From: an uncultured Thermodesulfobacteriota bacterium
GTDB taxonomy: Bacteria > Desulfobacterota > DSWW01
Direction of reading: 5' to 3'
DNA: 64,000 bases
Assembly (NCBI GenBank): GCA_964479535.1
Contig: CAYZMM010000004.1
Span: 70,459 to 134,458, forward strand
This document shows, in pieces, positions 6,176 through 34,296 of the stretch. Under the pieces are notes generated by a model. It saw nothing but the letters and a program-made list of their open reading frames with translations, did no database searches and had not been told where the DNA came from. Every line of letters begins with the position of its first letter. Within the stretch, counting starts at the first letter, position 1. Position numbers and translations under genes: made by a program.

Positions 6176-6179
6176 CACC

Positions 6180-12740: not shown

Positions 12741-12777
12741 AGAAAAGAAGGAAACAACGTCCCCTGTTCGAGCCGAG

Positions 12778-13467: not shown

Positions 13468-13606
13468 GGGCTTCCAGCATACCCGCGATCTTTCGGTTTT
13501 CACAAGCCCTTCGATCCGGTATGATGTCGACCGCACGGCATGAATTCCTCCCGGTATCCGCTGCCGCCGCTTTCCGCGCTCAACCCGATTCGATGAAAGG
13601 AAGCCT

Positions 13607-14182: not shown

Positions 14183-14192
14183 CGGAAGAAAG

Positions 14193-15682: not shown

Positions 15683-16365
15683 AGGATGCCGGAATCGAAT
15701 GCCGCGAGGTCACCTTTGCGCCCCGGGACCGGCCCGAGGGCAACCGGCCGATCCTGGACGGGGTGAATGCGAAGTTCGAACCGGCCCGGCCCGCCCTGAT
15801 CACGGGCCCCATGGGGGCAGGCAAGACCACCCTGCTCCACGTCCTTGCCGGCCTGCTGAGACCCACCCGGGGCGAGGTGCTCGCAGGGGGCCGGCCCGTC
15901 TCCCGCTGGACGGCCGCCCACCGCGATCTGTGGCGACGGGAAGTGGGGATCGTGTTTCAGGCCTCCAGCCTGTGGCCGGAGCTGACGGCCCTCGAGAACG
16001 TCCTCCTGCCCGTGATCCCCCGGGGCCGACGAACGGCAGCGATCCGTGCACAGGCCCTCGAGGCCCTGAAGGCGGTCGGGGTTTCCGACCTGGCCGGCCG
16101 GAGCGCACGCCTGCTTTCGGGAGGAGAGCGTCAGCGGGTGGCCGTTGCAAGAGCCCTTGTCTCGCGGCCCGCCTTTCTCTTCGTCGATGAACCCACGGCG
16201 CATCAGGACGACCACGGTGTCCGCCACGTTCTCGACGCGGTCTCCTCCGCCACCGCACGCGGCGCTCTGCTGGTGGTCGCTTCCCACGATCCCCGGGTGG
16301 CGGAAGACCACCGGCTCACGGATCGCTGGCACTTGAAGGCCGGACGGCTGGAGCGGATCCGATGA
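15679..16365 (+). CDS. ABC transporter ATP-binding protein
   Basis: It carries Walker A GPMGAGKTT, an LSGGERQRVAVARAL signature and a Walker B FVDEPT motif. The start at 15679 overlaps the permease stop. The long N-terminal extension of ORF 14629 is rejected as spurious. Confidence 0.85.
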   Translation: MKDAGIECREVTFAPRDRPEGNRPILDGVNAKFEPARPALITGPMGAGKTTLLHVLAGLLRPTRGEVLAGGRPVSRWTAAHRDLWRREVGIVFQASSLWPELTALENVLLPVIPRGRRTAAIRAQALEALKAVGVSDLAGRSARLLSGGERQRVAVARALVSRPAFLFVDEPTAHQDDHGVRHVLDAVSSATARGALLVVASHDPRVAEDHRLTDRWHLKAGRLERIR

Positions 16366-17393
16366 TCTGGCATCCACTGCTCCTCTCCGTGCTGACCCTG
16401 GACGTCCTCGCGCTCTTCTTCCTCCTCGCCGGACTGCTCTCGGCCCTGCAGATCGCCGCCCGCTGGTCGCCCGCGTCGGTGGAGAAAGAACAACTCGCTC
16501 TCGAAAGGAGAGCCGAGAGCGCTTCCATCCAGGGCCGCACCTGCGCCGTCCTTCTTCTCACCTCCACCCTGATCCTCATCATCGCAATCAGCGGGGTCCT
16601 GCCGGATCTCGTCCCCGGGGCCATGTGCGGAACAGGGGTGCTTCAGGCCACGCAGGGCGCAGGGGGGCGGGCACTCGCCCTGCGGGCACTCGCCCTGGGC
16701 CTGGTCGCCGCATGGCACCTCGTGGACCGGCTCAACCGGGCACGGCCCGGATCCCCCCTCGCTCTCACCGCATCCCGGGCCCTCCTGCTCGCCGGCCCGG
16801 TGGTGTTCCTGGCGGTGTACGACACGTTCCGGGCCGTCCTCCGGCTGGACGTGCACCGCCCCGTGGACTGCTGTTCGGTGGTCTACGATCAGATCCGACC
16901 CGCGGGTGAGGCAGTGGGAACATTCGGTCTGCCGGAGGCGTACGGGGTGTGGGGGCTCGCTCTGGGGGGAATCGTGATCCTGTTTCTGGGCGTGCGCCTC
17001 CGGCGCTCCCGCCGGCAGCAGGAACCCCGGAGAACAGCGCCCCTCGCTCTCGTCACCTTGTGCTGGGTTCCTTTGGCCGCAAGCGCGCTCGTCCGATCCC
17101 TTGCCGCGTATCACTACGGCGTGCTGCAGCACCGATGTCCCTGGTGTCTCTTCCTCCCGGAACACAAGCTGGTCGGCTACCTGCTGTTCGGCGCCCTGAC
17201 CCTGACCGCCGTGGAAGCAGGCGCCGCCTTCCTCTGCTCGAAGATCGCCGCCACCCTTCCCGCACTCGAACCGGACACCCTGAAACGGTCCCGTGCAGCC
17301 GGGCTGCGCATCACCGCAGCAACCGCCCTCTTCCTCGCCCTGTCAGGCCTGCCTCCGCTCCTGTGGCGCCTTCGGTTCGGCGTGTGGATGTGA
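16362..17393 (+). CDS. polytopic membrane protein (about 8 TM) with CC and C-P-W-C motifs; possible membrane thiol-disulfide oxidoreductase
   Basis: The start overlaps the ATPase stop. It has conserved-looking Cys pairs (DCCSVVYD, HRCPWC). Confidence 0.45.
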   Translation: MIWHPLLLSVLTLDVLALFFLLAGLLSALQIAARWSPASVEKEQLALERRAESASIQGRTCAVLLLTSTLILIIAISGVLPDLVPGAMCGTGVLQATQGAGGRALALRALALGLVAAWHLVDRLNRARPGSPLALTASRALLLAGPVVFLAVYDTFRAVLRLDVHRPVDCCSVVYDQIRPAGEAVGTFGLPEAYGVWGLALGGIVILFLGVRLRRSRRQQEPRRTAPLALVTLCWVPLAASALVRSLAAYHYGVLQHRCPWCLFLPEHKLVGYLLFGALTLTAVEAGAAFLCSKIAATLPALEPDTLKRSRAAGLRITAATALFLALSGLPPLLWRLRFGVWM

Positions 17394-17458
17394 TGCAGCA
17401 CCCGGCCTGAAGGAGCGTTCCCGGGCAGGTTCTTGATGCGTTCGATCCCTCTGTTGTT

Positions 17459-17893
17459 CTACGGGATCGTCACCCTGGCCTTGGCGACAGCCACCTTCTC
17501 TCCTTCCTGATTCTCAGCCCAGAGGTCCACGACAACGAAACTCTTCGACTTCCGCCTGGGGTGCTTCTCGCTGACGATGCCTCGGCACGTTATGGCGTCT
17601 CCCGGCCGCACAGGGTGAATGAATTTGCTCTCCAGTCGCGTTATGAACCCACCGCTTTCATAGCACCAGTCGGTGACCACCGAGGTCATGAAGGAAAACG
17701 TGCACATGCCGTGCGCGATGGTGGTTCCCTTCCCCAGCAGGTTGATCCGTTTCGCCCAGGCAGGGTCAACGTGGATGGGGTTGTAGTCCAGGGATGCGGT
17801 GGCATTTCTTGTGATCACTTTCTGGTCTACGTACTTGACCTGCGTCGGAAGTTCCATATCCGGGGGAATGCTCTCAAAGGTACCCGTCGCCAT
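17459..17893 (-). CDS. MaoC-like (R)-specific enoyl-CoA hydratase/dehydratase, hotdog fold
   Basis: 144 aa. An LDYNPIHVDPAWAK motif is present. Confidence 0.75.
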   Translation of the reverse strand: MATGTFESIPPDMELPTQVKYVDQKVITRNATASLDYNPIHVDPAWAKRINLLGKGTTIAHGMCTFSFMTSVVTDWCYESGGFITRLESKFIHPVRPGDAITCRGIVSEKHPRRKSKSFVVVDLWAENQEGEKVAVAKARVTIP

Positions 17894-17931
17894 TTGTCAC
17901 CTCCTGCGTTTGTACGGGAATCTGCCTGAAT

Positions 17932-18483
17932 TCAAAACGTGTGCGATTCTTCCCCATGGGACCTCGGCAAAATCAACGTAATCCACCACTTCGCAACCGG
18001 TTGGTCGTTCTGGTTGAAGAATTCGGTCTCATACGTGAGGTATCGCTTTCCACGCTTTACCCATTTGTCAAAGAACCTCGACTTGGCCCGGATGGTGTCT
18101 CCGAGGCGTATCGGTTCGTAGAATTCAATGACTTGGCCGGGGTTGATCGCTCCCGGTGTACGGACCCAGCTTCCCGGCCCGCTGTCGCCCGTCAGCCAGA
18201 AGCCCACAGGGGTCAAGAACAGCGGATGAGCAATGAGACCGCCGAAGGGGCCTTGTTCGGCGGCCTTCTTGTCGTTGAAGAGCGGGTTGTCGTCGAGGAT
18301 TCCTTCCGAATAGGCCAGGATGTCCTCTTCCTCGACTTCGAAGGTGCGCTCGATCTCGTACACGCCATCGAAATCGACGTCCTCCCATTTCTCGTACTCC
18401 TCGGCTTTCTTGAAGAAGTCGACTTCAAAAGCCTTCTGCTTCTTCGTCGTGAGAAAGTCCTCAATGCGAACGTCATCGTCCAT
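17932..18483 (-). CDS. hotdog-fold dehydratase, N-terminal-type partner subunit (FAS1 DH-N/HadA-like)
   Basis: 183 aa. It is adjacent to and co-oriented with the MaoC-like gene. Confidence 0.55.
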   Translation of the reverse strand: MDDDVRIEDFLTTKKQKAFEVDFFKKAEEYEKWEDVDFDGVYEIERTFEVEEEDILAYSEGILDDNPLFNDKKAAEQGPFGGLIAHPLFLTPVGFWLTGDSGPGSWVRTPGAINPGQVIEFYEPIRLGDTIRAKSRFFDKWVKRGKRYLTYETEFFNQNDQPVAKWWITLILPRSHGEESHTF

Positions 18484-18572
18484 GGTCTCTGCCCCCCATC
18501 GTTTTAGGGTTTACGGTTCTGCCATATAGAGGAGAGTTTCCCGGCCATTGTCCCGGCTCCTTTCTAGAATCT

Positions 18573-19212
18573 TTACTTGCCCTCGCCGATGTTCTCGTAG
18601 ATTTCTTTGGTTAGCGCCGTGAATTCCGACTCGCCGGGGAGAAGCACGTAGAGGGGATCGCGTATCCTTTCTCTATCAAAGCCTTCCCTCTTCAACGGCC
18701 CCTTTATGACTTTCATCGTGCCGGTCGTTGGCAGTTCCGACGAAATCCTCAGGAACTTGGGCACTGCAAAATCTGCAAGGTTGTCCCTTAGAATCGCGGT
18801 GAATCCACCCAGATCGTTTCTTGAACGCCTTCCATATTTCGGGGCGAAGGCCGTTGCCGACGATGGCTTCCACAGGGTTGGCAGCGTCATCCGGCTTCTC
18901 GGGTTGGTTCATGAGGTATTGGCACATCTCCCCGATGTAACCGAACTTCCTGGCGTGGAATTTCCTTATGTCGCTCCAGAACCGGGAAGCACTGAACTTC
19001 CTTCTTATCGCTATGGCTGCCCCCCTGTACATCACCGGCGCCCAGGATACGCCTAATGCATGGTTATGATAGAACGGCAGAGGAACGTAGAGCGTATCGT
19101 TCGGCTGCAAATCCAGCAGCTCGGAGAAGGCGTAGCCACCCGACAGTACAGCGGCGTGAACCCTGATCTGACTTGGGCCGCTCAGGGACCAGAGCAGAAA
19201 CACTGCATCTTC
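18573..19212 (-). pseudogene. fatty-acyl-CoA synthetase (FadD/FATP-like AMP-binding enzyme): 3' two-thirds only, and frameshifted
   Basis: Two overlapping ORFs encode the AMP-binding middle and C-terminal motifs (YVPLPFYHNHALG; PTTGTMKVIKGPLKREG). The whole N-terminal third is absent and the break abuts cyclase copy 1. Confidence 0.65.
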
Positions 19213-19289
19213 ACCTTTTTTTGGACATCTACCGTATGTCGTGCGGCATCCCCCTTTCGGTCGTAATTGCGACCAATGCCTGACGGGGT

Positions 19290-22121
19290 TTACACCAGCT
19301 CCTCGAGAAGGGCCTTCGCCTCCTTCAGGTCGCGGGCCTCTTGCTTGCGGCCCTGCTGCTGCCACAGGCGGGCGAGGCCCGTCGCCGCACGAAGCTCATA
19401 GGATTTCGCCCTCTGGCGCCGCGCTACCTCGAGCGCATCGCGGAAGGACGCCTCCGCCCCTGCCGGGTCGGCAGCGGTACGAGCGAGGAGCAGCTCGGCC
19501 TTCGTGCGGTGCAACTCCGCCTCCGCATAGCGTTCGCCGGTCTTGGTCGCGAATTCCAATCCCTCCGCTACGACGGCGAGGCCTTCCTCCACTTGCCCTG
19601 CCTTCCCGTGTGCCACGGCCAGAGTAGCAAGAAACCACGAGAATGCGGCCAACGCGCCCCTAGCCCGCAGACCCTCGAGAATGGAGCGCATTCCCGTGAT
19701 TCCTTTCTCCAGCTCTCTCCGCTCTGTAAGTGCCGCGAAGCGACACATGGTTCCGAATGCTAGCCAGTATGGAAAACCATGCTCTTCCGACAGAACGATC
19801 AGTGCTTCGGTCACCTTCAGGGACGCCTCCGAGTCTCGGCGCAGCAAGTGAACGATGCCAAGACCATTAAGGGCTGTTGCCTCACTGAAGGTATGAGACA
19901 GCTCCCGCGCCAGGGCGAGTGCCTCCCGGGCTCTTGTCAGGGCCTGTTCCGGATAGCCGAGCCAGAAAAGCGTCCAGCTCGAGTAGAACAGCGCAAGTAC
20001 GCCAACATTCGAAGAGGCCGAGAGGTAATCATGGCCCCGGTGTTTTTTGGGGTCGTAGAGGCCCAGCAGTTCTTCGAGATGTTCTCGGGCCTCGCAATGC
20101 TCCCCCCGCAAGAAGGATGTCGCGCCCATGGCGACCAGCGCGCAAAGGATTTGTCCCGGATCACCTGTCTGGCGGGCCACACGCAGCAGTTCCTCTGCTA
20201 GCAGGCGCGACTTGTCATGCTCAGCACGCATTTGTTGGCCCGCCCGCAGTCCATTCAAGGCTTCGAACAAATGAGAAGCATCCCCAAGGCGCCGAGCGAG
20301 ATCTCTGGCGCGCGCATACGCCTGCTCCGTCTCCACAGACGCGAAGCCCTCGGTCACGTGCAAGGCCTGGCCGAGTGTGCACTGCAGGACCAGATCCAGT
20401 TCGTCGCGCTCCCGGGTCTCGGGCAGAGTCTTCTGCTGTTCGAGAGCCTGCCTGAGGCGATCGATCGCCTCCCCGTAGGCCGAGCGCTCGATGGCCTGCT
20501 CTCCGGCCAGCCGGAGGTACTCGACCGCCTTCGGCGTGTTCGCGCTCCGGCCGTAGTGATGGGCCAGTTCCTCGTAGTGGGCGTCGAGTCCCTGAGGGTT
20601 GAGGGCCTCGATGGCCTGGCCGGTGCGCTCGTGCAGCACGCGCCGACGCTCCCTGAGAAGGGAGCCGTACGCCACCTCCTGCGTGAGGGCGTGCTTGAAG
20701 GTGTACTCCGGGTCCGGAAAGGCCGGCCGCTCGTAGATGAACTCCGCTACCTGCAGATGCGAGAGCCCGCGGGAGAGCTCCTCCAGGAAGAAGGGGTTTC
20801 CCTGGGTCTTGGAAAGGATGAGCCGGTCCAGGGCCTCCCGCTCTTCTCCCGCCCCTTCGCCCAGAAGGGCACCGAGCAGCTCCCTTGACTCCTCGGCTCC
20901 GAAAGGATCCAGCCTGAGCTGCGTGTAGCAGGTCCTGCTCCCCCAGCCGTGCCCGTACTCGGGCCGGTAGTTGACCAGCAAGAGGAGCCTCGCCGTGGCC
21001 ACACTGTCGACGAGCACGTCCAGGAAGGCCTGCGTCTCGGAGTCGATCCAGTGGAGATCCTCGAAGAGGAGAACACAGGGCTGGTTGAGGGTCTCCCGCA
21101 CCAGCACGCGTTTCACCGCCTCCAGGGCCCGCTGCCGCCGGATCTGCGGGTCCATCTGCTCGAGGGAGCCCGTCCTGTCTCCGATGCCGAGGAGGGTGAA
21201 GAGATACGGCAGGGTGTCCTCGAGCGTGCGGTCCAGGGCGAGCACGGTCCCGGTGACCTTCTCCCGCCTCCGGCGCTCGTCGTCTTCCACTCGGATTCGG
21301 AAATAGCCCTTCAGAAGCTCGAGCAACGGCAGGTAGGCGGATGCCTTGCCGTGGGAGACCGAGAAACCCTCGAGCACGCGGCAGCCGCTCCCGACGAGCC
21401 CCTTGAACTCGTGGAGCAGGCGCGACTTGCCCACACCCGCCTCGCCCAGCACCGCCAAAATCTGCCCACGTCCCGCTTGGGCTGCCTCCCACGCCCGCTC
21501 GAGCTCTCCCATCTCCCGCTCTCGGCCTACGAAGCGAACCAGCCCCCGCCTTGCCGAGACCTCCAGGGGGCTTCTCAGCGGACCCACGCCCTGCAACTCA
21601 TAGACACGCAGTGGCTCCGAGGTTCCGGCGATTTTGGACTCCCCCAGGTCCAGGAGTTGGAAAAAACCCTCCACGAGCCGCGCCGTGTGCTGGCTCAGGT
21701 AGGCGTGGCCCGGCTCTGCGAGCTGCTCGACTCGCTGCGCTAAACCCACCGTGTGCCGCTGAGCCGTGTAGTCCATGCGCAGGTCATCTCCGATCTTCCC
21801 GACCACCACCTCCCCGGAATTCAGGCCGAGACGGACCGAGAAGTTCAAGCTCCGATCCATGCGAAGCTCTTGCGCGTACTTCCTGAGTTGCTCGCAGAGA
21901 GCCAGCGCCGCGCAGCAAGCCCTCTGGGCGTGATCCTCGTGCGCGATCGGCGCACCGAACAGCGCCATGATGCCGTCGCCCGTGTACTGGTTCACCGTTC
22001 CCTCGAAGCGGTGCACGCCGTCTGCGAGATTCTGGAAGAACCGGTCGAGGATGCGGTGCCACTCCTCCGGGTCGACCTGCTCGGCCAGCTCCATCGACCC
22101 CTTCACGTCGGCGAAGAGCAC
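19290..22121 (-). CDS. class III nucleotidyl cyclase (CHD) - AAA/STAND NTPase - TPR protein, paralog 1 (N-terminally truncated; no Zn-ribbon; GTG start)
   Basis: The FADVKGS...GDGIMALFG metal-binding Asps, Walker A GEAGVGKSRL and C-terminal TPR-like helices are all present. Homology to the other copies continues upstream of the only start codon. Confidence 0.8.
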   Translation of the reverse strand: MLFADVKGSMELAEQVDPEEWHRILDRFFQNLADGVHRFEGTVNQYTGDGIMALFGAPIAHEDHAQRACCAALALCEQLRKYAQELRMDRSLNFSVRLGLNSGEVVVGKIGDDLRMDYTAQRHTVGLAQRVEQLAEPGHAYLSQHTARLVEGFFQLLDLGESKIAGTSEPLRVYELQGVGPLRSPLEVSARRGLVRFVGREREMGELERAWEAAQAGRGQILAVLGEAGVGKSRLLHEFKGLVGSGCRVLEGFSVSHGKASAYLPLLELLKGYFRIRVEDDERRRREKVTGTVLALDRTLEDTLPYLFTLLGIGDRTGSLEQMDPQIRRQRALEAVKRVLVRETLNQPCVLLFEDLHWIDSETQAFLDVLVDSVATARLLLLVNYRPEYGHGWGSRTCYTQLRLDPFGAEESRELLGALLGEGAGEEREALDRLILSKTQGNPFFLEELSRGLSHLQVAEFIYERPAFPDPEYTFKHALTQEVAYGSLLRERRRVLHERTGQAIEALNPQGLDAHYEELAHHYGRSANTPKAVEYLRLAGEQAIERSAYGEAIDRLRQALEQQKTLPETRERDELDLVLQCTLGQALHVTEGFASVETEQAYARARDLARRLGDASHLFEALNGLRAGQQMRAEHDKSRLLAEELLRVARQTGDPGQILCALVAMGATSFLRGEHCEAREHLEELLGLYDPKKHRGHDYLSASSNVGVLALFYSSWTLFWLGYPEQALTRAREALALARELSHTFSEATALNGLGIVHLLRRDSEASLKVTEALIVLSEEHGFPYWLAFGTMCRFAALTERRELEKGITGMRSILEGLRARGALAAFSWFLATLAVAHGKAGQVEEGLAVVAEGLEFATKTGERYAEAELHRTKAELLLARTAADPAGAEASFRDALEVARRQRAKSYELRAATGLARLWQQQGRKQEARDLKEAKALLEELV

Positions 22122-22448: not shown

Positions 22449-22676
22449 TCACGTCTTCTTCAGGACCGATGCAGGGAGTTCTGCTTGATCGAGGATTGAC
22501 TTGATGGTTTTGGGAGCGAGAGTTTCCTTGGCATGAACCGGAACCGTAACGTGGAGTCTACCGTCTTCGCTCTCGAAATGGTGGTGACTGCCTCTCACGT
22601 GACTCAGAGAGAATCCATGTTTCATCAGGATCCTGCAGAGTTGCTTTCCTGTTACTCTTCCGAGTTTCCGAGTCAA
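22449..22676 (-). CDS. hicA: HicA toxin (mRNA interferase)
   Basis: 75 aa with the RGSHHHF...VTVPVH HicA signature. It has a 4-nt overlap with hicB. Confidence 0.8.
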   Translation of the reverse strand: MTRKLGRVTGKQLCRILMKHGFSLSHVRGSHHHFESEDGRLHVTVPVHAKETLAPKTIKSILDQAELPASVLKKT

Positions 22677-22906
22677 GCCGCGACCTCTATTCTGATTCTC
22701 GCATCCGGCTCAAACTCTCTGGGAACAGGCTTCTTCGCCTTCCTGAGACCCTCGATGTGACAGAGGATAGCCTCTCTCGCCCTGTCTATGCATTGCTCGA
22801 TGTCCTTCCCTTGCGTAACGCAGCCCGGAAGGACAGGAACCGTCACCGTAAACATCTTAGCCTCTTTGTCGTAATACAACTCGATGTTGTAAGTCAGTTT
22901 TCTCAT
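22673..22906 (-). CDS. hicB: HicB antitoxin (UPF0150 / RNase-H-like fold)
   Basis: YNIELYYDKEAKMFTVTVPVLPGCVTQG is typical of HicB. The start is at 22906, with 22924 possible. Confidence 0.75.
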   Translation of the reverse strand: MRKLTYNIELYYDKEAKMFTVTVPVLPGCVTQGKDIEQCIDRAREAILCHIEGLRKAKKPVPREFEPDARIRIEVAA

Positions 22907-22995
22907 ATCAAAATCCTCCAGCATCGAGTAATCTGGATGAGGCTCCGGTAGGCAGCAGCCCTTCACGACACCGAAGCCTGACCAGCAACAACCAA

Positions 22996-23024: not shown

Positions 23025-23099
23025 TTGCGAACCGGTCCCTATCTCGCTTGCGCATTGAAATGATTCAAGATAAGGGTCGTGTGTTCTCCCTGGGGCGCC

Positions 23100-23330
23100 C
23101 ATGCCGGACAGACCTGCTTCCGTCCGTTGCCGGCAACTCCGCCAGCTCGTTCCTCACCTTGGCCGGCTCGGTCAGGTGTCCCAGTCGCTCGAAGATCACC
23201 AGGGCATCTGTCAGGTATTTTCGTGCCTCCTGCACGTTCCCCTGCTGCTTGTGGTACCGGCCCATGCCGGAGTAGTCAAGGGCCAGTTCGTTTTCGGCCT
23301 TGATCTCTCTGTTGATGGATACGCTCTCCC
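23100..23330 (-). pseudogene. orphan C-terminal TPR fragment of a further cyclase-STAND-TPR paralog (remnant)
   Basis: ENELALDYSGMGRYHKQQGNVQEARKYL...VRNELAELP closely parallels the extreme C-terminus of copy 4 (ENELALAYASMGRFYKMQGNMEKTREYL...VRKELADLP). Confidence 0.5.
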
Positions 23331-23601
23331 CAAGCTGAGACGATGATTGCGAGTTTGACCCTCTTACCGTCTTTCCTGCCCGTTCTACTCGGTGGACTTT
23401 AAAGCCCCCGTAAGGCAAAATCGTAAAAAGGAGGACAAACTTGCTTGAACGACCATAATCCTGTCTTCCTAACGCGGCTTGCACCTCAGAGGGAACGTCA
23501 GGATGATCAAGCCCGCCACAAGATGGTCTTGTCGACTTCTCCCTCTCGCTACGAATGTCTACTTCCTGTCGCTCTTGATGGTGCCCAGTGTCTGACGAGG
23601 T

Positions 23602-26600
23602 TCATGCCAGCTCGTCGAGAAGGGCCTTCGCCTCCTTCAGGTCGCGGGTATCGAGGCCCTCGGTGAACCAGTCGTAGACAGGTGCGAGTAGATCGCGGGC
23701 CTCTTGCCTGCGGCCCTGCTTCCGCCACAGGCGGGCGAGGCCCGTCGCGGCACGAAGCTCATAGGATTTCGCGCTCTGGCGCCGCGCTACCTCGAGCGCA
23801 TCGCGGAAGGACGCCTCCGCCCCTTCCGGGTCGGCAGGCGTACGAGCGAGAACCAACTCGGCCTTTACGCGATGCAATTCCGCCTCGCCCCAGTGTTCGC
23901 CGGTCTTCCTCACGAATTCCAGTTCCTCCGCGGCGGCGGCAAGCCCTTCCTCCACTTGCCCTGCCTTCCTGTGTGCTCCGGCCAAGAGGGCAAGATACCA
24001 CGACGATCCCACCACTGCCCCCCTGGCCCGCATACCCTCGATAACAGAGCGCATTCCGGCGATTCCCTCCTGCAGATCGCCCTGCTCAGCGAGAGCCGCG
24101 CCGCGAAAGCCGGCTCCGAATGCCAGATACGAAGGAAACCCCTGCTCGCTCGATAGGGCGATCAGCGTTTCTGCTGTCTCAAGGGAGGCCTTCGACTCGC
24201 GACGAAACATGTGGACGATACCGAGACCGAGGAGGGCAGTTCCCTCACTGAAGGCATGGGAGAGTTCCCGGGCAAGGGCGAGGCCCTGCCGGGCTCTTGT
24301 CAGGGCCTGATCCGCGTACCCGAACGGGAACAGCGTCCAGCTGAAGAAAAGGAGCCCCCATATGCCAACATTGGCTGTGGGCTTGAGGTATTCGTGGCCC
24401 CGGTGCTTCTTGGGGTCGTAGAGGCGGAGGAGCTCTTCGAGATGTTCCCGGGCCTCGTAAAACTCTCCCCGATAGAAGGATGCCACGCCCATGCCGAAGA
24501 GCGCACGCAGGAGTTGTCCCGGGTCGTGTGACTCGCGGGCCACACCGAGCAGTTCCTCGGCGAGCAATTGCGACTTGTCATGCTCAGCACGAGCGATTTG
24601 GACCGTCCGCAGTCCGTTCAACGCCGCAAACAACTGAGAAGCGTCCCCCAGGCACCGGGCGAGATCTCGGGCGCGCACATACGCCTGCTCCGCTTCCGCG
24701 GACGCCAAGCCCTCGATCACGAGCAAAGCCTGGCCGAGTGCGGACTGCACGACCAGCTCCAGCTCGTCCCGCTCCCGGGTGTCGGACAGGGTCTTCAGGA
24801 GTTCGAGAGCCTGCCTGAGCCGGGCGATAGCCTCGCCGTACGCCGAGCGCGCCACCGCCTGCTCACCGGCCAGCCGCAGGTACTCGACAGCCTTGGGCGT
24901 GTTCGCGCTCCGGCCGTAGTGATGGGCCAGTTCCTCGTAATGGGCGTCGAGCGCCTGAGGGTTGAGAGCCTCGATGGCCTGCCCGGTGCGCTCGTGCAGC
25001 ACGCCCCGGCGCTCCCGGAGTAGCGACCCGTACGCCACTTCCTACGTGAGTGCGTGCTTGAACGTGTACTCCGGGTCCGGAAAGGCCGGCCGCTCGTAGA
25101 TGAACTCCGCTGCCTGCAGATGCGAGAGCTCTCTGGAGAGATACTCCTCGGCCTCTCCGGCCACGGCGCGGATGAGGCCCAGGGAGAACTCCTTGCCGAT
25201 CACGGCCAGGGTCTGCAGCAGGTCCTTCTCCCGGGAAGGCAGCCGGTCGATGCGTGCCCCGATCACCCCCTGAACCGTGGCCGGGATGTGGAGTTCTGTC
25301 GGGGATCTCTTCAGACGGTAATGACCCGGCTCCCCTGCGAGCACCCCTTCCTCGACGAGCGTCTGCACCAGCTCCTCCAGGAAGAAGGGGTTTCCCTGGG
25401 TCTTGGAAAGGATGAGCCGGTCCAGGGCCTCCCGCTCTTCTCCCGCCCCTTCGCCCAGAAGGGCACCGAGCAGCTCCCTTGACTCCTCGGCTCCGAAAGG
25501 ATCCAGCCTGAGCTGCGTGTAGCAGGTCCTGCTCCCCCAGCCGTGCCCGTACTCGGGCCGGTAGTTGACCAGCAAGAGGAGCCTCGCCGTGGCCACACTG
25601 TCGACGAGCACGTCCAGGAAGGCCTGCGTCTCGGAGTCGATCCAGTGGAGATCCTCGAAGAGGAGAACACAGGGCTGGTTGAGGGTCTCCCGCACCAGCA
25701 CGCGTTTCACCGCCTCCAGGGCCCGCTGCCGCCGGATCTGCGGGTCCATCTGCTCGAGGGAGCCCGTCCTGTCTCCGATGCCGAGGAGGGTGAAGAGATA
25801 CGGCAGGGTGTCCTCGAGCGTGCGGTCCAGGGCGAGCACGGTCCCGGTGACCTTCTCCTGCCTCCGGCGCTCGTCGTCTTCGATCCGGATTCGGAAATAG
25901 CCCTTCAGAAGTTCGAGCAACGGCAGGTAGGCGTATGCCTTGCCGTGGGAGACCGAGAAGCCCTCGAGCACGCGGCAGCCGCTCGTAAGCTGCTCTTTGA
26001 ACTCGTAGAGGAGGCGCGACTTGCCCACACCCGCCTCGCCCAGCACTGCCACGATCTGCCCGCGGCCCGCCCGGGCTGCCTCCCAGGCGCGCTCAAGCTC
26101 TCCCATCTCCCGCCGCCGGCCCACGAAGCGCACAAGCCCTCGCCTCGCGGCTACCTCCATTTTCGTTCGCAGGGGGCCCACGCCCTGCAGCTCGAAGACA
26201 CGCAGCGGTTCCTGCACGCCCTGCACGTTGAAGCGGCCCAGATCGCTGAGGCGGAGCGCCGCGTAGCACGCCCGCTGCGCATGGTCCTCGTGGGCAATGG
26301 GCGCACCGAACAGCGCCATGATCCCGTCGCCCGTGTACTGGTTCACGGTTCCTTCGAAGCGGTGGACCCCATCGGCCAGGATCTGGAAGAAACGGTCGAG
26401 GATGCGGTGCCACTCCTCCGGGTCCACCTGCTCGGCCAGCTCCATGGACCCCTTCACGTCGGCGAAGAGGACGGTCACCTGCTTCCGCTCCCCATCCAGT
26501 GCGGACCCGGACTGCAGAATCCTGTCGGCCAGGTGTTTGGGCGTGTAAGACTGAGGCTGCAAGTGGTCTATCGTGGCGGCTTCAACAGGCTTTCTCAGGT

Positions 26601-26742
26601 CGTGGCCGCATCTATCACAGAACCTGCTTTCCGGTGTATTCAGGTTTGCGCATTGAGGGCAGGAGAGTTCCAGTTTGCTCCCGCACGCCTTGCAGAAGGT
26701 GGCCCCCTCTCTGTTTTCGGCGTGGCAAGTGGGGCACTTCAT
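23602..26742 (-). pseudogene. Zn-ribbon - cyclase - AAA/STAND - TPR paralog 2, disrupted by an in-frame TAG at 25039-25041 and an in-frame deletion of about 243 bp in the cyclase domain
   Basis: The two ORFs 25042..26742 and 23602..25038 share a frame and are separated only by TAG, where copy 1 has CAG. The cyclase domain lacks roughly 81 aa present in copies 1, 3 and 4. Confidence 0.75.
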
Positions 26743-26778: not shown

Positions 26779-27183
26779 CTATAGCAATTTCACCTGTCTC
26801 AGGGCCTTGACCTTCCTGTGAAGCTTCTTGTCTGACGTGACGAGATCACACGCAAGCCGCCTTGCCAGCTCGACATATGCGGCATCGTAGAGGGTGATTC
26901 CATAGCGTCTGGACAATCGGATGGCGCTCGAGAACTCCTCGAATCCAAGGTCAAAGACCTGGAGGTCAAAATTCCACAGCATGGAGAACACCTCGGAGAC
27001 CGCCCCTGCATCCAGCCTTGTCCGCGTTAGGAGCACGTTGGCCGCTTCATAGAAGAACAGGTCCGGCACGGCGATCGGCTCTTCTCCGGAAACGTGCACG
27101 TCCCTGTAACGAAGGGCTCGATCACTGCCTTCCTCGTTCTCAAAGATCCACTTGAGGACGACCGATGCATCCAATACGATCAT
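26779..27183 (-). CDS. vapC: VapC PIN-domain toxin
   Basis: MIVLDASVV...YEAANVL...YDAAYVELA...TSD gives the PIN acidic residues. A 4-nt overlap with phd is present. Confidence 0.8.
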   Translation of the reverse strand: MIVLDASVVLKWIFENEEGSDRALRYRDVHVSGEEPIAVPDLFFYEAANVLLTRTRLDAGAVSEVFSMLWNFDLQVFDLGFEEFSSAIRLSRRYGITLYDAAYVELARRLACDLVTSDKKLHRKVKALRQVKLL

Positions 27184-27458
27184 CTGCTGTCTCTCATCTC
27201 GCGGATTGCCCCCGTCACATCCGTTCGGCTGGTCTCTTTCCCATGTCGCTCTTTCCACTTCTCCATGCCTGCACAGATCTCCTGAAGTTTCCGGCCCCTC
27301 TCCTTTTTCAGTATCCTCTCCTCATACTCATCTACGGAAATGATGACCGCGAGGGGCTTGTTTGCCCTTGACACGATGAAGCGCTCCTTTCGGTCGTGAA
27401 CCTCGTTCAGAATGCTTCCGAGCTTCTTCCTTAGGTCCAGCGCAGTCAGTCTCTTCAT
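27180..27458 (-). CDS. phd: Phd/YefM-family antitoxin
   Basis: 93 aa. FIVSRANKPLAVIISVDEYE is classic for Phd/YefM. Confidence 0.75.
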   Translation of the reverse strand: MKRLTALDLRKKLGSILNEVHDRKERFIVSRANKPLAVIISVDEYEERILKKERGRKLQEICAGMEKWKERHGKETSRTDVTGAIREMRDSR

Positions 27459-27480
27459 TGTCTTCTCCCTTCTGGGTTCA

Positions 27481-27510
27481 ACTATACTATGAGCTATCAT
27501 AGTCACTATG
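27481..27510 (-). promoter_or_regulatory. putative phd-vapC operator: inverted repeat CTATGA-N4-TCATAG plus ACTAT direct repeats immediately upstream of phd
   Basis: The palindrome at 27487-27502 lies 30-50 nt upstream of the phd start codon. Confidence 0.35.
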
Positions 27511-27732
27511 TCAATGAGATCTGGCCTGGGCTCCCTCCGAATGCGCCCTAAGACGTGATGCACGCGAGGGCCTCCCGGGCGCGGGTGAGCCAGTAGCTCC
27601 AGGGGGCGTTCATTTCCAGGCATACGGCTTCCGCTTTTTTCAGGTTACCCACGGCTTCTTCTCTTCTCTCCGGATCGGCGAACAGCCCCCCGAAGCGGTA
27701 GGGTGGATGAAGCGAAGCGAATCCGCCACAGT

Positions 27733-30700
27733 TCACGTAAGCTCCTCGAGAAGGGCCTTCGCCTCCTTCAGGTCGCGGGTGTCGAAGCCTTCCGTGAACC
27801 AGTGGTAGACCGGTGCGAGCAGCTCGCGGGCCTTTTGCTTGCATCCCTGCTGCTGCCATAGGCGGGCGAGGCCCGTCGCCGCTCGAAGCTCATATGATTT
27901 CGCGCTCTGGCGCCGCGCTACCTCGAGCGCATCGCGGAAGGACGCCTCCGCCCCTACTTGGTCGGCGGGTGTATGACCGAGAAGCAACTCGCCTTTTACG
28001 CGATGCAACTCTGCCTCCATCATGCGCTCGTCGGTCTTTGTCACGAATTCCAATCCCTGCGCCACGAGAGCGACACCTTCCTCCACTTGTCCTGCCTTCC
28101 TGTGTGCCCGGGCCAAGAGGGCAAGAAACCACGAAGATCCCAGGACTGCGCCCCTGGCCCGCATACCCTGGAGAACCGACCGCATCCCGGCGATTCCCTC
28201 CTGCAGCTGTCCCTCCTCGGTGAGCGCCTCGAGGCGAAGCCAGGCTCCGAATGCCAGATAGTACGCAAACCCATGCTCGCTTGAGAGATTGATTACAGCC
28301 TCTGCTGTCTGAAGAGATGCCTTAGAGTCGCGCCGCTCCAGGTAGATACGGCTAATACAGAATAGGGCAACTGACTCACTGAAGGGATCAGAGAGCTCCC
28401 GCGCCAGGGCGAGCCCCTCCAGGGCCCTCTTGAGGGCCTGGACCGGGTAACCGAGGGAGACAAGCGTCCAGCTGAAGAAGAAGAGGCCCCATACGCCAAC
28501 ATTCGCTGAGGCTGAGAGGTAATCATGGCCCCGATGTTTCTTCGGGTCGTAAAGGCCGAGGAATTCTTCGAGATGCTCTCGGGCCTCCGAAAACTCTCCC
28601 CGATAAAAGGATGTCCCGCTCATGGCATGCAGCGCGCGCAGGAGTTGTCCCGGGTCGCGTGACTCGCGGGCCACACGGAGCAGTTCCTCGGCGAGCAGAC
28701 GAGCTTTGTCATGCTCAGCACGTACCTGTTGGCCCGCCCGCAGTCCGGTCAACGCTGCAAACACCTGAGAAGCATTCCCCAGGCACTCAGCGAGATCCCG
28801 GGCGCGCAAATACGCCTGCTCTGCTTCCACGGACGCGAAGGTCTCGGTTACGTCCAAGGCCTGGCCGAGTGCGGACTGCAGGGACAGCTCCAGTTCGTCC
28901 CGCTCCCGGGTCTCGGGCAGGGTCTTCAGGAGTTCGAGAGCCTGCCTGAGCCTGTCGATCGCCTCCCCGTAGGCCGAGCGCGCCACCGCCTGCTCACCGG
29001 CCAGCCGCAGGTACTCCGCGGCCTTGGGCGTGTTCGCACTCCGGCCGTAGTGGTGGGCCAGCTCCTGGTAGTGCTCGTCGAGTGTTTCGCTGTAGACCTT
29101 CTCGATCGCCTGACCCACCCTCTCGTGTATTGCCCCGCGCCTCTCTCGCAGCATGGACCCGTACGCCACCTCCTGCGTGCGTGCGTGCTTGAACGTGTAC
29201 TCCGGGTCCGGAAAGGCCGGCCGCTCGTAGATGAACTCCGCTGCCTGCAGATGCGAGAGCTCTCTGGAGAGATACTCCTCGGCCTCTCCGGCCACGGCGC
29301 GGATGAGGCCCAGGGAGAACTCCTTGCCGATCACGGCCAGGGTCTGCAGGAGGTCCTTCTCCCGGGAAGGCAGCCGGTCGATGCGGGCCCCGATCACCCC
29401 CTGAACCGTGGCCGGTATGTGCAGCTCCCCCGGGGATCTCTTCAGACGGTAATGACCCGGCTCCCCTGCAAGCACCCCTTCCTCGACCAGGGTCTGCACC
29501 AGTTCCTCCAGGAAGAAGGGGTTTCCCTGGGTCTTCGCCATGATGAGCCGTTCGAGCTCGGTCCGATCTGCGCTTGCCTCATCCCCCAAGAGGGCTGTTA
29601 GTAGCTCCCGAGCCTCCACATCCCCCAGTGGATCCAGCCGGAGCTGTGTGTAGCAGGTCCTGCTCCCCCAACCGTGCCCGTACTCGGGCCGGTAGTTCAC
29701 CAGGAACAGGAGCCTGGCCGTGGCCACGCTGTCGACGAGCACGTACAGGAAGGCCTGGGTCTCGGAGTCGATCCAGTGAAGATCCTCGAAGACGAGCACA
29801 CAGGGCTGGTCGAGGGTCTCCCGCACCAGCACGCGCTTCACGGCCTCCAGGGTCCGCTGCCGCCGGATCTGTGGGTCCATCTGCTCGAGCGGGCCGGTCA
29901 GGTCTCCGATGCCCAGGAGGGTGAAGAGATACGGCAGGGTGTCCTCGAGCGTGCGGTCCAGGGTCAGCACGGTCCCGGTGACCTTCTCCCGCCTCCGGCG
30001 CTCGTCGTCTTCTAGGCCGATTCGGAAATACCCCTTCAGAAGCTCGAGCAACGGCAGGTAGGCGTATGCCTTGCCGTGGGAGACCGACAAGCCCTCGAGC
30101 ACGCGGCAGCCGCTCGTAAGCTGCCCCTTGAACTCGTAGAGCAGGCGCGACTTGCCCACACCCGCTTCGCCCAACACCGCCACAATCTGGCCGCGGCCCG
30201 CCTGGGCGGCCTCCCACGCCCGCTGGAGCTGCTCCATCTCCCTCTGCCGGCCCACGAAGCGCGAAAGCCCCCGTCTTTCGGCTACCTCCATTTTCGTTCG
30301 CAGGGGGCCCACGCCCTGCAGCTCGAAGACCCGCAGCGGTTCCTGCACGCCCTGCACGTTGAAGCGGCCCAGATCGCCCAGCCGGCAGAGGCCCTCGACC
30401 ATCTTGGCCGTGTGCTCGCTGAGATAAGCCTTTCCCGGCTCCGCCAGTTGCTCCATGCGCGCCGCAAGGCCCACGGTCTGGCCCTGGGCCGTGTAGTCCA
30501 TCCGCAGGTCGTCGCCGATCTTACCGACCACCACTTCGCCCGAGTTGAGCCCCATCCTGACCGAGAACCGAAGCCCCTTCTCCCGTTTCAACTCTGCCGC
30601 GTACCGCTGCAGTCCCTCGCTCAGGCGGAGCGCCGCGTAGCAGGCCCGCTGAGCGTGATCCTCGTGAGCGATCGGCGCCCCGAAGAGCGCCATGACACCG

Positions 30701-31116
30701 TCGCCGGTGTACTGGTTCACCGTTCCCTCGAAACGGTGCACGCCGTCCGCAAGGATCTGGAAGAACCGGTCGAGGATCCGGTGCCACTCCTCCGGGTCGG
30801 TCTGTTCAGCCATTTCCATCGAGCCCTTTACGTCTGCGAAGAGGACGGTGACCACTTTCCGTTCGCCCTCGATCGAGCTGCGGGTCGTGAGGATCTTTTC
30901 GGCAAGGTAGTTCGGGGTGTAGGACCGAGGTTGGGAGTAGTCGACGGCGGGCGTTGCTACGGGCTTGGTCAGGTCATGGGCGCAATCGCCGCAGAACTTA
31001 TCGTTCGGAAGAACTTCAGCCCCGCACTGAGGGCAGGCGAGGACGAGTCTCGCCGCACATGCCCGGCAGAACTTCTTGTTATCCGGGTTGTCCGTCTGGC
31101 ACTGAGGGCATTTCAT
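27733..31116 (-). CDS. double Zn-ribbon - class III nucleotidyl cyclase (CHD) - AAA/STAND NTPase - TPR protein, paralog 3 (intact, 1127 aa)
   Basis: Two CPxC...CxxC ribbons are followed by a full CHD domain, a P-loop NTPase and long TPR-like C-terminal helices. No interruptions are seen. Confidence 0.85.
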   Translation of the reverse strand: MKCPQCQTDNPDNKKFCRACAARLVLACPQCGAEVLPNDKFCGDCAHDLTKPVATPAVDYSQPRSYTPNYLAEKILTTRSSIEGERKVVTVLFADVKGSMEMAEQTDPEEWHRILDRFFQILADGVHRFEGTVNQYTGDGVMALFGAPIAHEDHAQRACYAALRLSEGLQRYAAELKREKGLRFSVRMGLNSGEVVVGKIGDDLRMDYTAQGQTVGLAARMEQLAEPGKAYLSEHTAKMVEGLCRLGDLGRFNVQGVQEPLRVFELQGVGPLRTKMEVAERRGLSRFVGRQREMEQLQRAWEAAQAGRGQIVAVLGEAGVGKSRLLYEFKGQLTSGCRVLEGLSVSHGKAYAYLPLLELLKGYFRIGLEDDERRRREKVTGTVLTLDRTLEDTLPYLFTLLGIGDLTGPLEQMDPQIRRQRTLEAVKRVLVRETLDQPCVLVFEDLHWIDSETQAFLYVLVDSVATARLLFLVNYRPEYGHGWGSRTCYTQLRLDPLGDVEARELLTALLGDEASADRTELERLIMAKTQGNPFFLEELVQTLVEEGVLAGEPGHYRLKRSPGELHIPATVQGVIGARIDRLPSREKDLLQTLAVIGKEFSLGLIRAVAGEAEEYLSRELSHLQAAEFIYERPAFPDPEYTFKHARTQEVAYGSMLRERRGAIHERVGQAIEKVYSETLDEHYQELAHHYGRSANTPKAAEYLRLAGEQAVARSAYGEAIDRLRQALELLKTLPETRERDELELSLQSALGQALDVTETFASVEAEQAYLRARDLAECLGNASQVFAALTGLRAGQQVRAEHDKARLLAEELLRVARESRDPGQLLRALHAMSGTSFYRGEFSEAREHLEEFLGLYDPKKHRGHDYLSASANVGVWGLFFFSWTLVSLGYPVQALKRALEGLALARELSDPFSESVALFCISRIYLERRDSKASLQTAEAVINLSSEHGFAYYLAFGAWLRLEALTEEGQLQEGIAGMRSVLQGMRARGAVLGSSWFLALLARAHRKAGQVEEGVALVAQGLEFVTKTDERMMEAELHRVKGELLLGHTPADQVGAEASFRDALEVARRQSAKSYELRAATGLARLWQQQGCKQKARELLAPVYHWFTEGFDTRDLKEAKALLEELT

Positions 31117-31548: not shown

Positions 31549-34296
31549 ATGGACCGATTCTACGGTTGGATCGTCCGCAGGCCGAAGCTGATTCTCCTCC
31601 TCCTCGTTCTTCCCACAGCATTCCTTGCCCTTCAGGCGCGACACATCCGGTTGGACAGCTCCATCGAGAGCCTCCTGCCGAGGGAAGACCCTGAAAAGAA
31701 GTACTACGAAGAGATTCGTCAACTCTACGGCAGTGACGAGATCGTCGTGATCGGCCTCATGGCGGACAACGTCTACAGGCCGGAAACCGTTCAGAAGATC
31801 GAGCGGATCACGGAAAAGATCCGAGAGATGCCCGAGGTGAAGAGCGTTGCGAGCCTCACCAACGCGCAGGATGTGATCAAATCCGTTGCCGAGGACACCC
31901 TGCTCATCCCGGAGATTCCCACCACCGAGGAAGGATGGGAAGAGGTCAAGGGCAGGGTCGCCGAGCACCCCGTCTATCTGAAGAACCTGGTCTCCCCCGA
32001 TGGTCGCGCGGCCGCGATCAACGTCACCTTCCTGGAGAGTGTGTCGGACGAGGCGTTCCTGCGCCGCGGGATCGACGAGAGAATTCAGAAGATCCTGGAC
32101 GCGGAACAGGGGCCGGAGAAGCTCTACTACACGGGGCTTCCTCGCTTCAAGGTCCACGTGGTCCAATCCATGCGGGGAGATTTGAAGTCCTTTCTCCCCC
32201 TGGTGCTGCTCTGCATCGCTGTCGTCATGTTCGCAAGCTTCCGCTCTCTGCGTGGGGTGATCCTGCCTGCGGTTACCTCCGTCGTAGGCCTGACCTGGAC
32301 CCTCGGGATCATGGTGCTGGCCGGAAGTTCCCTGAGCCTGGGGAGCATCACACTTCCCCCTTTGCTCCTCGTCCTGGGCACGGTCTACTCCCTGCACGTG
32401 GTGGCCGAGTACTACGAATTGGCCCGGCCCGGCACGCCGGCGGGCGAGGTGGTCCTCGAGACCCTCAGAAAGACCGGAATGCCCGTCCTGATTACGGCAC
32501 TGACCACCGCCCTGGGCTTCGCGGCCCTGGCCGTGAACCGCATCGTCAGTATCCGGGAGATGGGCCTCTTCTCCGCAGCAGGCATCCTGTTCGCCTTCCT
32601 GCTCTCGGTGACCCTTGTGCCGGCGATCCTCTGCCTGTTGCCGCTGCCCAAGAGGCGGGCAGACCGGTTTTCGCCCGTGTTGACCTCGACACTTCAACGG
32701 ATAAGCCGCCTGGACATCCGATACCGCAGGCCGATCATCCTTGCGGGAATCCTCATTGCGGTCCTCGCAGCCTGGCAGATTCCCTCGATCATGGTGGACT
32801 CGAACTTCCAGTCCTTCTTCCGCAAAGACGACCCGATCCGCAAGGCCAGCGATGTCATCAACGAGCATCTTGCCGGAAGCTCTGCCTTCTACGTCACCAT
32901 CGACGGCGAGAAGACGGGCCTCGTGAAGAAATGGGACACCTTGAAGCGAATCAAAGAGCTTCAGCTCTACATCGACGCTTTGCCCGGAATCGAGAAGACG
33001 ATTTCCCTGGTGGACTACTGCGAGATCCTGGACAGAGGGATTCAGGCCGTGCCCCCCTGGGAGGAACCGCCCGAGCCGCAGGAGCCGGAGCCCCAGACGA
33101 CCTTCTGGGAGAATCCTTCCCAGCTCGACGGCGTCATGCAGCTGGTGTTCCTGAATGCGAAGAGCATATCCGGCGTTGCGAACCATCCCGTGTTCTCGCG
33201 GACGAACATCATCGTTCGCACCTCCCTCACCCACGCCAGCGATGTGGCCGCCACGGTGGAGAAGATCGAGGCGTTTGCCGCCGAGACCTTTCCCCCGGAG
33301 CTCACCGTGAGGACCACCGGCGAGTTGATCCTTCACACTCGCACGAGCGGCGACATCGTGAGGGGGCAGATTCAGAGCCTGGGGCTTGCCGCCGGGATCA
33401 TCTTCCTCGTCATGTCGACCATGTTTCTCTCCGTTCGGATCGGCCTGATCGCCATGGTTCCGAACCTCTTCCCGATCATGGTCTTCTTCGGGCTCATGGG
33501 CGCCTCAGGGGCCGTCCTCAGCCTGAGCACGAATATCATTGCCGCGATTGTCCTGGGGATCGCCGTGGACGATACCATCCACCTCATGTCACGCCTGAGT
33601 TCCCAGGTCAGGGCAACGGCCGACCGGGAAGAGGCCCTCCTTCACACCTTCTCCACCGTGGGGAAGCCCGTCTTCTACACGTCCGTGATCCTGTTCCTGG
33701 GCTTTCTCACGCTCTGCGTCTCCTCCTTTGTGCCGATCCGGGAATTCGGCATTCTGGCCGCCTTCACGATGATCGTGGCTCTTGGCGCAGATGTGGTCTT
33801 GTTGCCCGCCATCCTGTCGACCACGCGGTTCATCACCCTGTGGGATCTGCTCTATCTCAAGCTGGGCCGGGATCCGCACAAGGTCATTCCCCTCTTTGAC
33901 GGACTGAGGCCCTTGCAGGCCAAGATCGTCACCCTCATGGGCGAACTCAAGACCTTCACCCACGGCGATGCGATCGTCCGTCAGGGGGATATGGGCAATG
34001 AAATGTTCGTTCTGCTCAAAGGCACGGCGGAGATTCACATCCAGGCCGAAGGCCGGTCCAGACGCATTGCCGGGCTCGAGAGAGGGGACGTCTTTGGAGA
34101 AATGGGACTGCTTCGCCATCATGAACGCACGGCAGACGTCGTTGCTTCCGAAGATGTGGAAGTCCTGGCCGTAAACGAGCGCTTCCTCTCGCGCATCAAG
34201 CGCCGGTACCCGCGAATCGGCGCCCAGATCTTCTTCAATGTGGCAAAGATCCTCAGTGACCGCCTCGAAGAGGCAAGAAAGGTCCCCTCGGTATAG
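31549..34296 (+). CDS. RND-superfamily MMPL/HpnN-like exporter (two SSD/12-TM halves) fused to a C-terminal cyclic-nucleotide-binding (CAP-family) domain
   Basis: 915 aa with MMPL-type TM/periplasmic-loop topology. The last roughly 120 aa carry FGEMGLL...R..TADVVA, the cNMP phosphate-binding cassette. Confidence 0.75.
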   Translation: MDRFYGWIVRRPKLILLLLVLPTAFLALQARHIRLDSSIESLLPREDPEKKYYEEIRQLYGSDEIVVIGLMADNVYRPETVQKIERITEKIREMPEVKSVASLTNAQDVIKSVAEDTLLIPEIPTTEEGWEEVKGRVAEHPVYLKNLVSPDGRAAAINVTFLESVSDEAFLRRGIDERIQKILDAEQGPEKLYYTGLPRFKVHVVQSMRGDLKSFLPLVLLCIAVVMFASFRSLRGVILPAVTSVVGLTWTLGIMVLAGSSLSLGSITLPPLLLVLGTVYSLHVVAEYYELARPGTPAGEVVLETLRKTGMPVLITALTTALGFAALAVNRIVSIREMGLFSAAGILFAFLLSVTLVPAILCLLPLPKRRADRFSPVLTSTLQRISRLDIRYRRPIILAGILIAVLAAWQIPSIMVDSNFQSFFRKDDPIRKASDVINEHLAGSSAFYVTIDGEKTGLVKKWDTLKRIKELQLYIDALPGIEKTISLVDYCEILDRGIQAVPPWEEPPEPQEPEPQTTFWENPSQLDGVMQLVFLNAKSISGVANHPVFSRTNIIVRTSLTHASDVAATVEKIEAFAAETFPPELTVRTTGELILHTRTSGDIVRGQIQSLGLAAGIIFLVMSTMFLSVRIGLIAMVPNLFPIMVFFGLMGASGAVLSLSTNIIAAIVLGIAVDDTIHLMSRLSSQVRATADREEALLHTFSTVGKPVFYTSVILFLGFLTLCVSSFVPIREFGILAAFTMIVALGADVVLLPAILSTTRFITLWDLLYLKLGRDPHKVIPLFDGLRPLQAKIVTLMGELKTFTHGDAIVRQGDMGNEMFVLLKGTAEIHIQAEGRSRRIAGLERGDVFGEMGLLRHHERTADVVASEDVEVLAVNERFLSRIKRRYPRIGAQIFFNVAKILSDRLEEARKVPSV

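Follow-up and report, generated by a model that had tools for sequence, protein, structure and literature searches.

A truncated zinc-ribbon/cyclase/STAND-ATPase/TPR paralog with an amber codon and an in-frame deletion: probable recent pseudogenisation in a four-copy array of an uncultured Thermodesulfobacteriota bacterium

Introduction

Class III cyclases fused N-terminally to a STAND-type ATPase are known from mycobacteria, where Rv0386, Rv1358 and Rv2488c combine the two domains with a C-terminal helix-turn-helix of the LuxR type and have no zinc ribbons. A fusion of the same kind is found in a local array of four paralogs on the minus strand of a 64,000-nucleotide stretch of DNA from an uncultured Thermodesulfobacteriota bacterium (GenBank assembly GCA_964479535.1, contig CAYZMM010000004.1, positions 70,459 to 134,458; hereafter the window). 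The present work deals with the second of these genes, copy 2 (23602..26742, minus strand), a disrupted gene for a protein with a double zinc ribbon, a class III cyclase domain, an AAA_16 (STAND-type) NTPase and TPR repeats. A preliminary description of the window had taken it for a fresh pseudogene.

The best NCBIfam match of the intact paralog, copy 3, is TIGR03903 (TOMM system kinase/cyclase fusion protein); the alignment covers positions 276-1266 of the 1267 in the profile, and the score of 437 bits falls short of the cutoff (705.75). Both proteins contain a class III cyclase, an AAA_16 domain and a long TPR region in the same order. However, the TOMM protein starts with a protein kinase in place of the double zinc ribbon, the TOMM genes that belong to that system were not seen near the array, and copy 2 lacks half of the cyclase and is interrupted by a stop codon. 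The best structural relatives of the cyclase domain are Cya2 (2w01, E = 3e-27) and CyaB (3r5g, E = 6e-27), with which it shares both metal-binding Asp residues and the conserved Arg. By contrast, the substrate-specifying site, Lys or Glu in Cya2 and CyaB, is Gln here, the catalytic Asn is replaced by Gly, and copy 2 retains only the part of the domain that runs through the GDG-MALFGAP strand and the next helix. A literature search on the zinc ribbon/cyclase/STAND/TPR architecture returned nothing specific.

Ordinary bacterial pseudogenes arise through nonsense mutations and deletions between short repeats, and NLR/STAND clusters are subject to birth-and-death evolution. The array that includes copy 2 is no different in kind, with copies that lie in tandem, exchange sequence by conversion and decay singly. 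As detailed below, copy 2 is probably a genuine and recently inactivated member of the array that was disabled by two independent lesions, an ordinary case of pseudogenisation in the routine birth-and-death turnover of an expanded zinc-ribbon/cyclase/STAND-ATPase/TPR family.

Results and Discussion

Amber codon and domain organization of copy 2

Translation of the minus strand from 26742 to 23602 gives one frame of 1047 codons whose sole internal stop is a TAG at codon 567 (25044-25042), and the reading frame is thus continuous on either side of the amber codon, as the preliminary description had noted. In the four-way nucleotide alignment, this codon is aligned with CAG (Gln) in copies 1 and 3, where the surrounding residues read HALT-Q-EVAYGSLL, and is followed in copy 2 by GAA and GTG. 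The stop is explained by a single C-to-T transition that is unique to copy 2. The earlier account was right about the stop and about the CAG of copy 1, to which that of copy 3 is now added, but placed the TAG one codon off, at 25039-25041, which is the GAA codon.

The stop divides the gene into two open reading frames (ORFs) that abut in the same frame. The upstream ORF (25042..26742, minus strand) encodes 566 amino acids (aa) from an ATG at 26742-26740, which is preceded at a distance of 5 nt by the Shine-Dalgarno sequence GGAGGA (26753-26748). According to Pfam, it comprises two DZR zinc ribbons, the first half of the cyclase domain and a full AAA_16 domain. The downstream ORF (23602..25038, minus strand; 478 aa from a GTG) contains the TPR repeats that make up the sensor part. 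The AAA_16 domain (PF13191) spans residues 205-390 and covers profile positions 1-166 of 167 with 86.7 bits; its Walker A motif, GEAGVGKS, is intact. The cyclase profile (PF00211), on the other hand, is matched over positions 7-88 of 183 with 29 bits, versus 7-177 with 78 bits in copy 3, and the complete catalytic fold of ~180 residues is absent from copy 2, although both metal-binding Asp residues are kept (FADVKGS and YTGDG).

Copy 3 (27733..31116, minus strand; 1127 aa), with DZR, Guanylate_cyc (profile positions 7-177 of 183), AAA_16 and TPR regions, is the only intact copy among the four and serves as the reference for both lesions of copy 2. The two genes share 83.5% nucleotide identity over 3141 aligned nucleotides. 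Copy 2 displays two hallmarks of a pseudogene, namely full-length homology to an intact paralog together with a premature stop, and the loss of a segment that is invariant in the family.

The 243-bp deletion and its junction

Copy 2 is devoid of exactly 243 aligned columns (81 codons), in frame, the sequence of which is present in copies 1, 3 and 4. The absent segment corresponds to positions 30616-30374 of copy 3, residues 167-247 of its product. In copy 3, the segment is preceded by CTGAGCGA (30624-30617) and ends with CTGGGCGA (30381-30374), and copy 2 reads CGCCTCAGCGATCTGGGCC across the junction (26253-26235). The two flanking 8-mers match at 7 of 8 positions, and the exact run amounts to 4 nt, GCGA, inside which the junction of copy 2 falls (26246-26243, minus strand). 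When all possible 243-bp deletions in copy 3 are considered, the probability of an exact microhomology of at least 4 nt is 0.032 and that of a 7-of-8 match is 0.017. The microhomology at the junction is modestly beyond chance.

The loss of about 243 bp (81 aa) from the second half of the cyclase domain had already been reported, and the nucleotide alignment of copies 2 and 3 across the deletion, which had been proposed as a check, returns precisely this figure as an in-frame gap with GCGA at the junction. The accompanying view of a textbook slippage event between 8-bp microhomologies holds in that the repeats do flank the copy 3 segment as described, but is overstated, as only 4 nt are exact and the 8-mers match imperfectly. 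The junction is compatible with slipped mispairing or microhomology-mediated repair, and the deletion most likely arose through microhomology-mediated mispairing at GCGA, either by replication slippage or by misaligned repair. Hairpin-assisted slippage was also considered and rejected, since the 243-bp segment and its flanks show no single-strand structure beyond that of shuffled sequence (z = -0.74).

Conservation of the affected positions

To assess the impact of the lesions, 159 loci found in other genomes and metagenomes were aligned with copy 3. Of 204 homolog alignments, 156 (76%) have Gln at the amber site, 32 have His and 10 have Arg, and none shows a stop codon there. The deleted segment is spanned by 168 homolog alignments, in each of which at most 11 of the 81 residues are missing. 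Of the two metal-binding Asp residues that copy 2 retains, one is conserved in 165 of 170 homologs and the other in 172 of 176, and the Walker A Lys is found in all 185.

The deleted stretch spans positions ~89-170 of 183 in the Pfam cyclase profile, and its counterpart in the solved cyclases 2w01 and 3r5g holds the GINTGEVVVG hairpin and the VNLxxRIE helix. The stretch contains an Arg that is conserved in 175 of 177 homologs, as well as the position of the catalytic Asn, and copy 2 is consequently left without either position of the transition-state Asn/Arg pair. In class III cyclases, the transition-state residues and a large share of the dimer interface reside in the second half of the fold. 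Judged from its sequence, the remainder of the cyclase domain of copy 2 cannot be a cyclase.

The deletion eliminates the second half of the cyclase, and with it the purine-contacting hairpin and the conserved transition-state Arg, and the CAG-to-TAG change at codon 567 severs the TPR region from the NTPase. By analogy with the family, the region lost after the stop would be the sensor and autoinhibitory module of STAND proteins. Any protein made from copy 2 is anticipated to be a 566-residue stump with neither a working cyclase nor a sensor, and the region after the stop is presumably largely untranslated and starting to drift.

Usage of TAG in the window

An alternative explanation is that the TAG of copy 2 is decoded, by pyrrolysine insertion, by a suppressor tRNA or by programmed read-through, to yield a full-length protein that lacks only the cyclase half. 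The 478 in-frame codons that follow the TAG, with a coding-like GC content at third codon positions (GC3) of 0.76, would be expected in that case. However, TAG terminates at least six genes of the window that are confirmed by Pfam (URO-D, thiolase-like, PaaK-like, AMP-ligase, FtsX and MMPL-cNMP), and in all six the stop follows within a few residues of the last positions of the profile. The preliminary description had likewise regarded TAG as a normal stop here and recoding as unlikely, and its examples of URO-D, thiolase and PaaK are thus joined by three more genes. In total, TAG closes ~14 of the 37 likely genes in the window, and it also closes the vapC gene upstream of copy 2. A search for tRNA genes in the window found none, and the paralogs and most homologs have a plain Gln, one transition away, at the amber site. 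Recoding was rejected on the basis of stop-codon usage in the window and is regarded as barely credible.

Gene conversion among the paralogs

Comparison of the four copies reveals tracts of identity that are far longer than anticipated from their overall divergence. A 487-nt tract of copy 2 (25372..25858, minus strand) is identical to copy 1 (21264-20778), and a 169-nt tract (25050..25218, minus strand) is identical to copy 3 (29349-29181); with evenly spread mismatches, ~1e-31 and ~3e-11 such runs would be expected, respectively. Further upstream, copy 2 resembles copy 4 at 26392-26281 and copy 3 from ~26274 through the deletion junction to ~26150. These patterns indicate that all four copies are mosaics of very recent gene-conversion tracts. 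One end of the 169-nt tract lies 6 nt 5' of the amber codon, an observation to which no mechanism is attached.

The end of the 487-nt tract coincides exactly with a 231-bp deletion in copy 1, and a copy-3-like tract begins at the deletion of copy 2. This is most simply explained if deletions already in place halt conversion tracts. Because pre-existing deletions would themselves stop the tracts, the ages of the tracts do not date the deletions, and an attempt to date the deletion of copy 2 from the copy-3-like tract that flanks it was abandoned for this reason. The same consideration applies to the argument that decay must be recent in view of the otherwise highly similar sequence: this similarity derives largely from recent conversion and not from recent duplication, and cannot date the lesions. 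Recent decay itself is supported by the substitution patterns described below. Taken with the lesions, the tracts are consistent with an array that evolves by duplication, frequent gene conversion between copies and piecemeal decay.

Alternatively, one or both lesions might represent an artefact or a minority allele, caused by a consensus error, strain heterogeneity in the metagenome bin or a wrong assembly path through the paralogs. The 487-nt and 169-nt repeats are long enough to confuse short-read assembly, and the identical 566-aa protein is recorded from one NCBI contig only (200,488 bp). A wrong path through a shared repeat, however, swaps flanks and cannot generate a junction with 4 nt of identity or a point substitution, and exchanging the flanks at the 487-nt repeat between copies 1 and 2 would still leave lesions in both genes. 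In addition, copies 1, 2 and 3 each have an unbroken frame of 2.8-3.4 kb, which argues for a high consensus accuracy. An artefactual origin is therefore considered unlikely.

Substitution patterns and age of the lesions

We further analyzed the copies by counting substitutions at codons where two of copies 1-3 agree and the third differs by one base. Over the whole gene, copy 2 shows 49 synonymous and 32 non-synonymous changes, with a ratio of non-synonymous to synonymous change (pN/pS) of 0.22, compared with 57 and 31 (0.18) in copy 1 and 83 and 42 (0.17) in copy 3. Most of the divergence specific to copy 2 built up under purifying selection. In the part that follows the stop, copy 2 has 24 synonymous and 28 non-synonymous changes (pN/pS 0.39), copy 1 has 35 and 20 (0.19), and copy 3 has 31 and 19 (0.21). 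The difference between copy 2 and the other two in this part is associated with a Fisher p value of 0.06, and the relaxation that followed the stop is at most modest and statistically marginal. Upstream of the stop, copy 2 has 25 synonymous and 3 non-synonymous changes, but the resulting pN/pS of 0.04 reflects imported sequence rather than the history of this lineage, because, upstream of the deletion, copy 4 shares about half of the 'unique' sites.

These values suggest that the lesions are young relative to the divergence of the paralogs; if the neutral pN/pS is taken as 1, they would cover no more than about a quarter of the copy-specific branch. The earlier conclusion of two independent lesions in a paralog undergoing recent decay is supported in this sense, that is, recent relative to paralog divergence (pN/pS 0.22 versus 0.17-0.18).

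Several observations nevertheless weigh against a simple loss of function. The strong Shine-Dalgarno sequence, together with the 25 versus 3 unique changes upstream of the stop, makes a residual role for the 566-aa stump conceivable. The marginal relaxation downstream (p = 0.06) is a signal that diversification of the sensor could equally produce. The internal deletions of copies 1 and 2 (243, 231 and 51 bp) are all multiples of three, for which the chance is 1/27, and this hints that the deleted forms were perhaps translated and tolerated for a time. Finally, the exact 566-aa ORF occurs on a single public contig, and its nearest relatives are 55-78% identical.

Some of these points would fit a gene that is split yet in use, in which the 566-aa stump, a 478-aa TPR protein re-initiated at the GTG at 25038, or both, act as partners or dominant-negative regulators of copy 3, for example by joining its STAND oligomer. 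The intact ATG at 26742 with GGAGGA 5 nt upstream, the intact Walker A motif, possible co-transcription from a sigma-70-like promoter upstream of phd-vapC and the in-frame nature of the deletion, shared by both deletions of copy 1, are in line with such a role. The GTG directly behind the stop could permit termination-reinitiation; however, it is a Val codon conserved in all copies, and the only Shine-Dalgarno-like sequence, AGGA, is 1 nt away from it, which is too close for normal initiation. Similarly, the excess of synonymous over non-synonymous changes in the N-terminal part (25 versus 3) was partly imported from copy 4 by conversion, and pN/pS about doubles downstream of the stop. As every homolog retains the cyclase segment that copy 2 has lost, and a stop at the amber site is absent from all of them, a functional split gene is judged quite unlikely, and inactivation of copy 2 by the two lesions is retained as the preferred explanation.

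The family in other genomes

A huge expansion of the family is seen in Binatia, Methylomirabilota and other "delta" metagenome-assembled genomes (MAGs), and 35 of the 159 loci used for the conservation analysis harbor at least two copies of it within ~23 kb. A frame change or an in-frame stop was found in 28 of 210 copies in other genomes, some of them long-read MAGs in which indel errors are possible. Decay of individual copies hence seems routine in this family, with about one copy in eight that looks disrupted.

The closest relative found, locus L160 (ENA ERZ25039600 contig_6316, 5690-19305), contains four tandem copies with 72-78% amino-acid identity. Three of them are frameshifted, with the proviso that long reads are prone to indel errors, and one is preceded by a PIN gene. 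A neighbouring gene for a zinc-ribbon, kinase and AAA_16 protein is also broken at this locus. Protein-based searches gave only distant relatives, with best identities of 55% in genomes and 63% in metagenomes, and a DNA pattern specific to copy 2, in which C or T was allowed at the amber site, had no match in the metagenome scan. The 566-aa ORF, copy 3 and P0001 likewise had no exact match in the contig index.

The arrangement of one intact and three broken copies in L160, along with the identical tracts of 487 and 169 nt and the copy-4-like and copy-3-like patches in copy 2, raises the idea that broken copies act as silent donor cassettes, from which conversion shuffles segments into the expressed copy 3 and thereby diversifies its NTPase and TPR sensor. 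The pilS and vlsE cassettes and conversion by pseudo-V genes offer parallels, of which this would be a bacterial equivalent acting on a STAND (NLR-like) sensor. By this analogy copy 2 would be a reservoir of sequence, a role that we consider very improbable.

Two other candidate assignments were dismissed. The proteins P0024, P0035, P0044, P0054 and P0071, which are 73-76% identical and begin inside the cyclase domain, might have represented a conserved short architecture; they are read as partial gene calls because they start at an internal Met on contigs of 3-4.5 kb. A Pycsar-type defence cyclase was proposed by a PADLOC match to PycC, but this match covers only the cyclase domain of copy 3 (E = 5e-25, residues 76-224) and is ascribed to generic class III cyclase homology. 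Against membership stand the size and multidomain architecture of copy 3 (1127 aa) and the failure to find the adjacent effector gene of the usual two-gene arrangement.

Taken alone, copy 2 matters little, as it is one more pseudogene and mainly calls for a correction of the annotation: the ORFs 25042-26742 and 23602-25038 should be joined into a single gene marked as disrupted, and copies 1 and 4 need a flag as well. More interest attaches to the array, in which one intact copy stands beside three broken ones and very recent conversion tracts, even though it follows a familiar mode of evolution. It is mildly informative as a clean snapshot of turnover in a family of bacterial STAND sensors that is hugely expanded and uncharacterised, with local duplication, very recent conversion, short-homology deletions and point nonsense mutations displayed side by side.

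The remaining copies and neighbouring genes

A tblastn search with the translation of copy 2 located the three further copies, all on the same strand. Copies 1 and 4 had been used in the preliminary description as intact references, a use that is not sustained, as both are decayed. Copy 1 (19290 to ~22260, minus strand) has no zinc-ribbon region and no start codon before a GTG at 22121, which lies inside the first cyclase strand. It carries two in-frame deletions, one of 231 bp after 20778 with a microhomology of 2 nt, which is not significant, and one of 51 bp after 19337 with a microhomology of 7 nt (CCCGCGA, P = 0.006). The segments concerned are present in all homolog alignments that span them (193 of 193 for the 231-bp and 170 of 170 for the 51-bp deletion). 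Copy 4 (~36400-37365, minus strand) is a remnant that keeps a complete cyclase domain but has lost the P-loop region, lacks a start codon for the zinc-ribbon part and shows a change of frame. It adjoins a TPR ORF of another type (324 aa; 35503-36477, minus strand). Just downstream of copy 2, the ORF 23065-23484 (minus strand) includes 66 residues that are 61% identical to the C-terminal end of that TPR ORF, and represents a further gene fragment.

Two toxin-antitoxin pairs are located between the paralogs, HicA/HicB at 22449-22966 and Phd/PIN (VapC-like) at 26779-27623, both on the minus strand. The ATG of copy 2 follows the vapC stop by 37 nt, and a sigma-70-like promoter is found upstream of phd-vapC at 27514-27486 (minus strand). 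Copy 2 may accordingly be co-transcribed with the phd-vapC module.

The active site of copy 3 deviates from that of canonical class III cyclases at two positions. Residue 135 (~30714-30712), equivalent to the substrate-specifying Lys or Glu, is a Gln in all copies of the array and in 133 of 174 family homologs. At residue 216 (~30471-30469), where 118 of 173 homologs have the catalytic Asn, copies 1, 3 and 4 have Gly; the Arg of the pair is kept. On this evidence, even the intact copy 3 may be a weak or atypical cyclase.

Divergent from copy 3, a gene at 31549-34296 (plus strand) encodes an MMPL/sterol-sensing-type transporter with a C-terminal cyclic-nucleotide-binding domain. This MMPL-cNMP protein is a possible receiver of the cyclase product, and its location beside copy 3 suggests a testable output for the cyclase domain.

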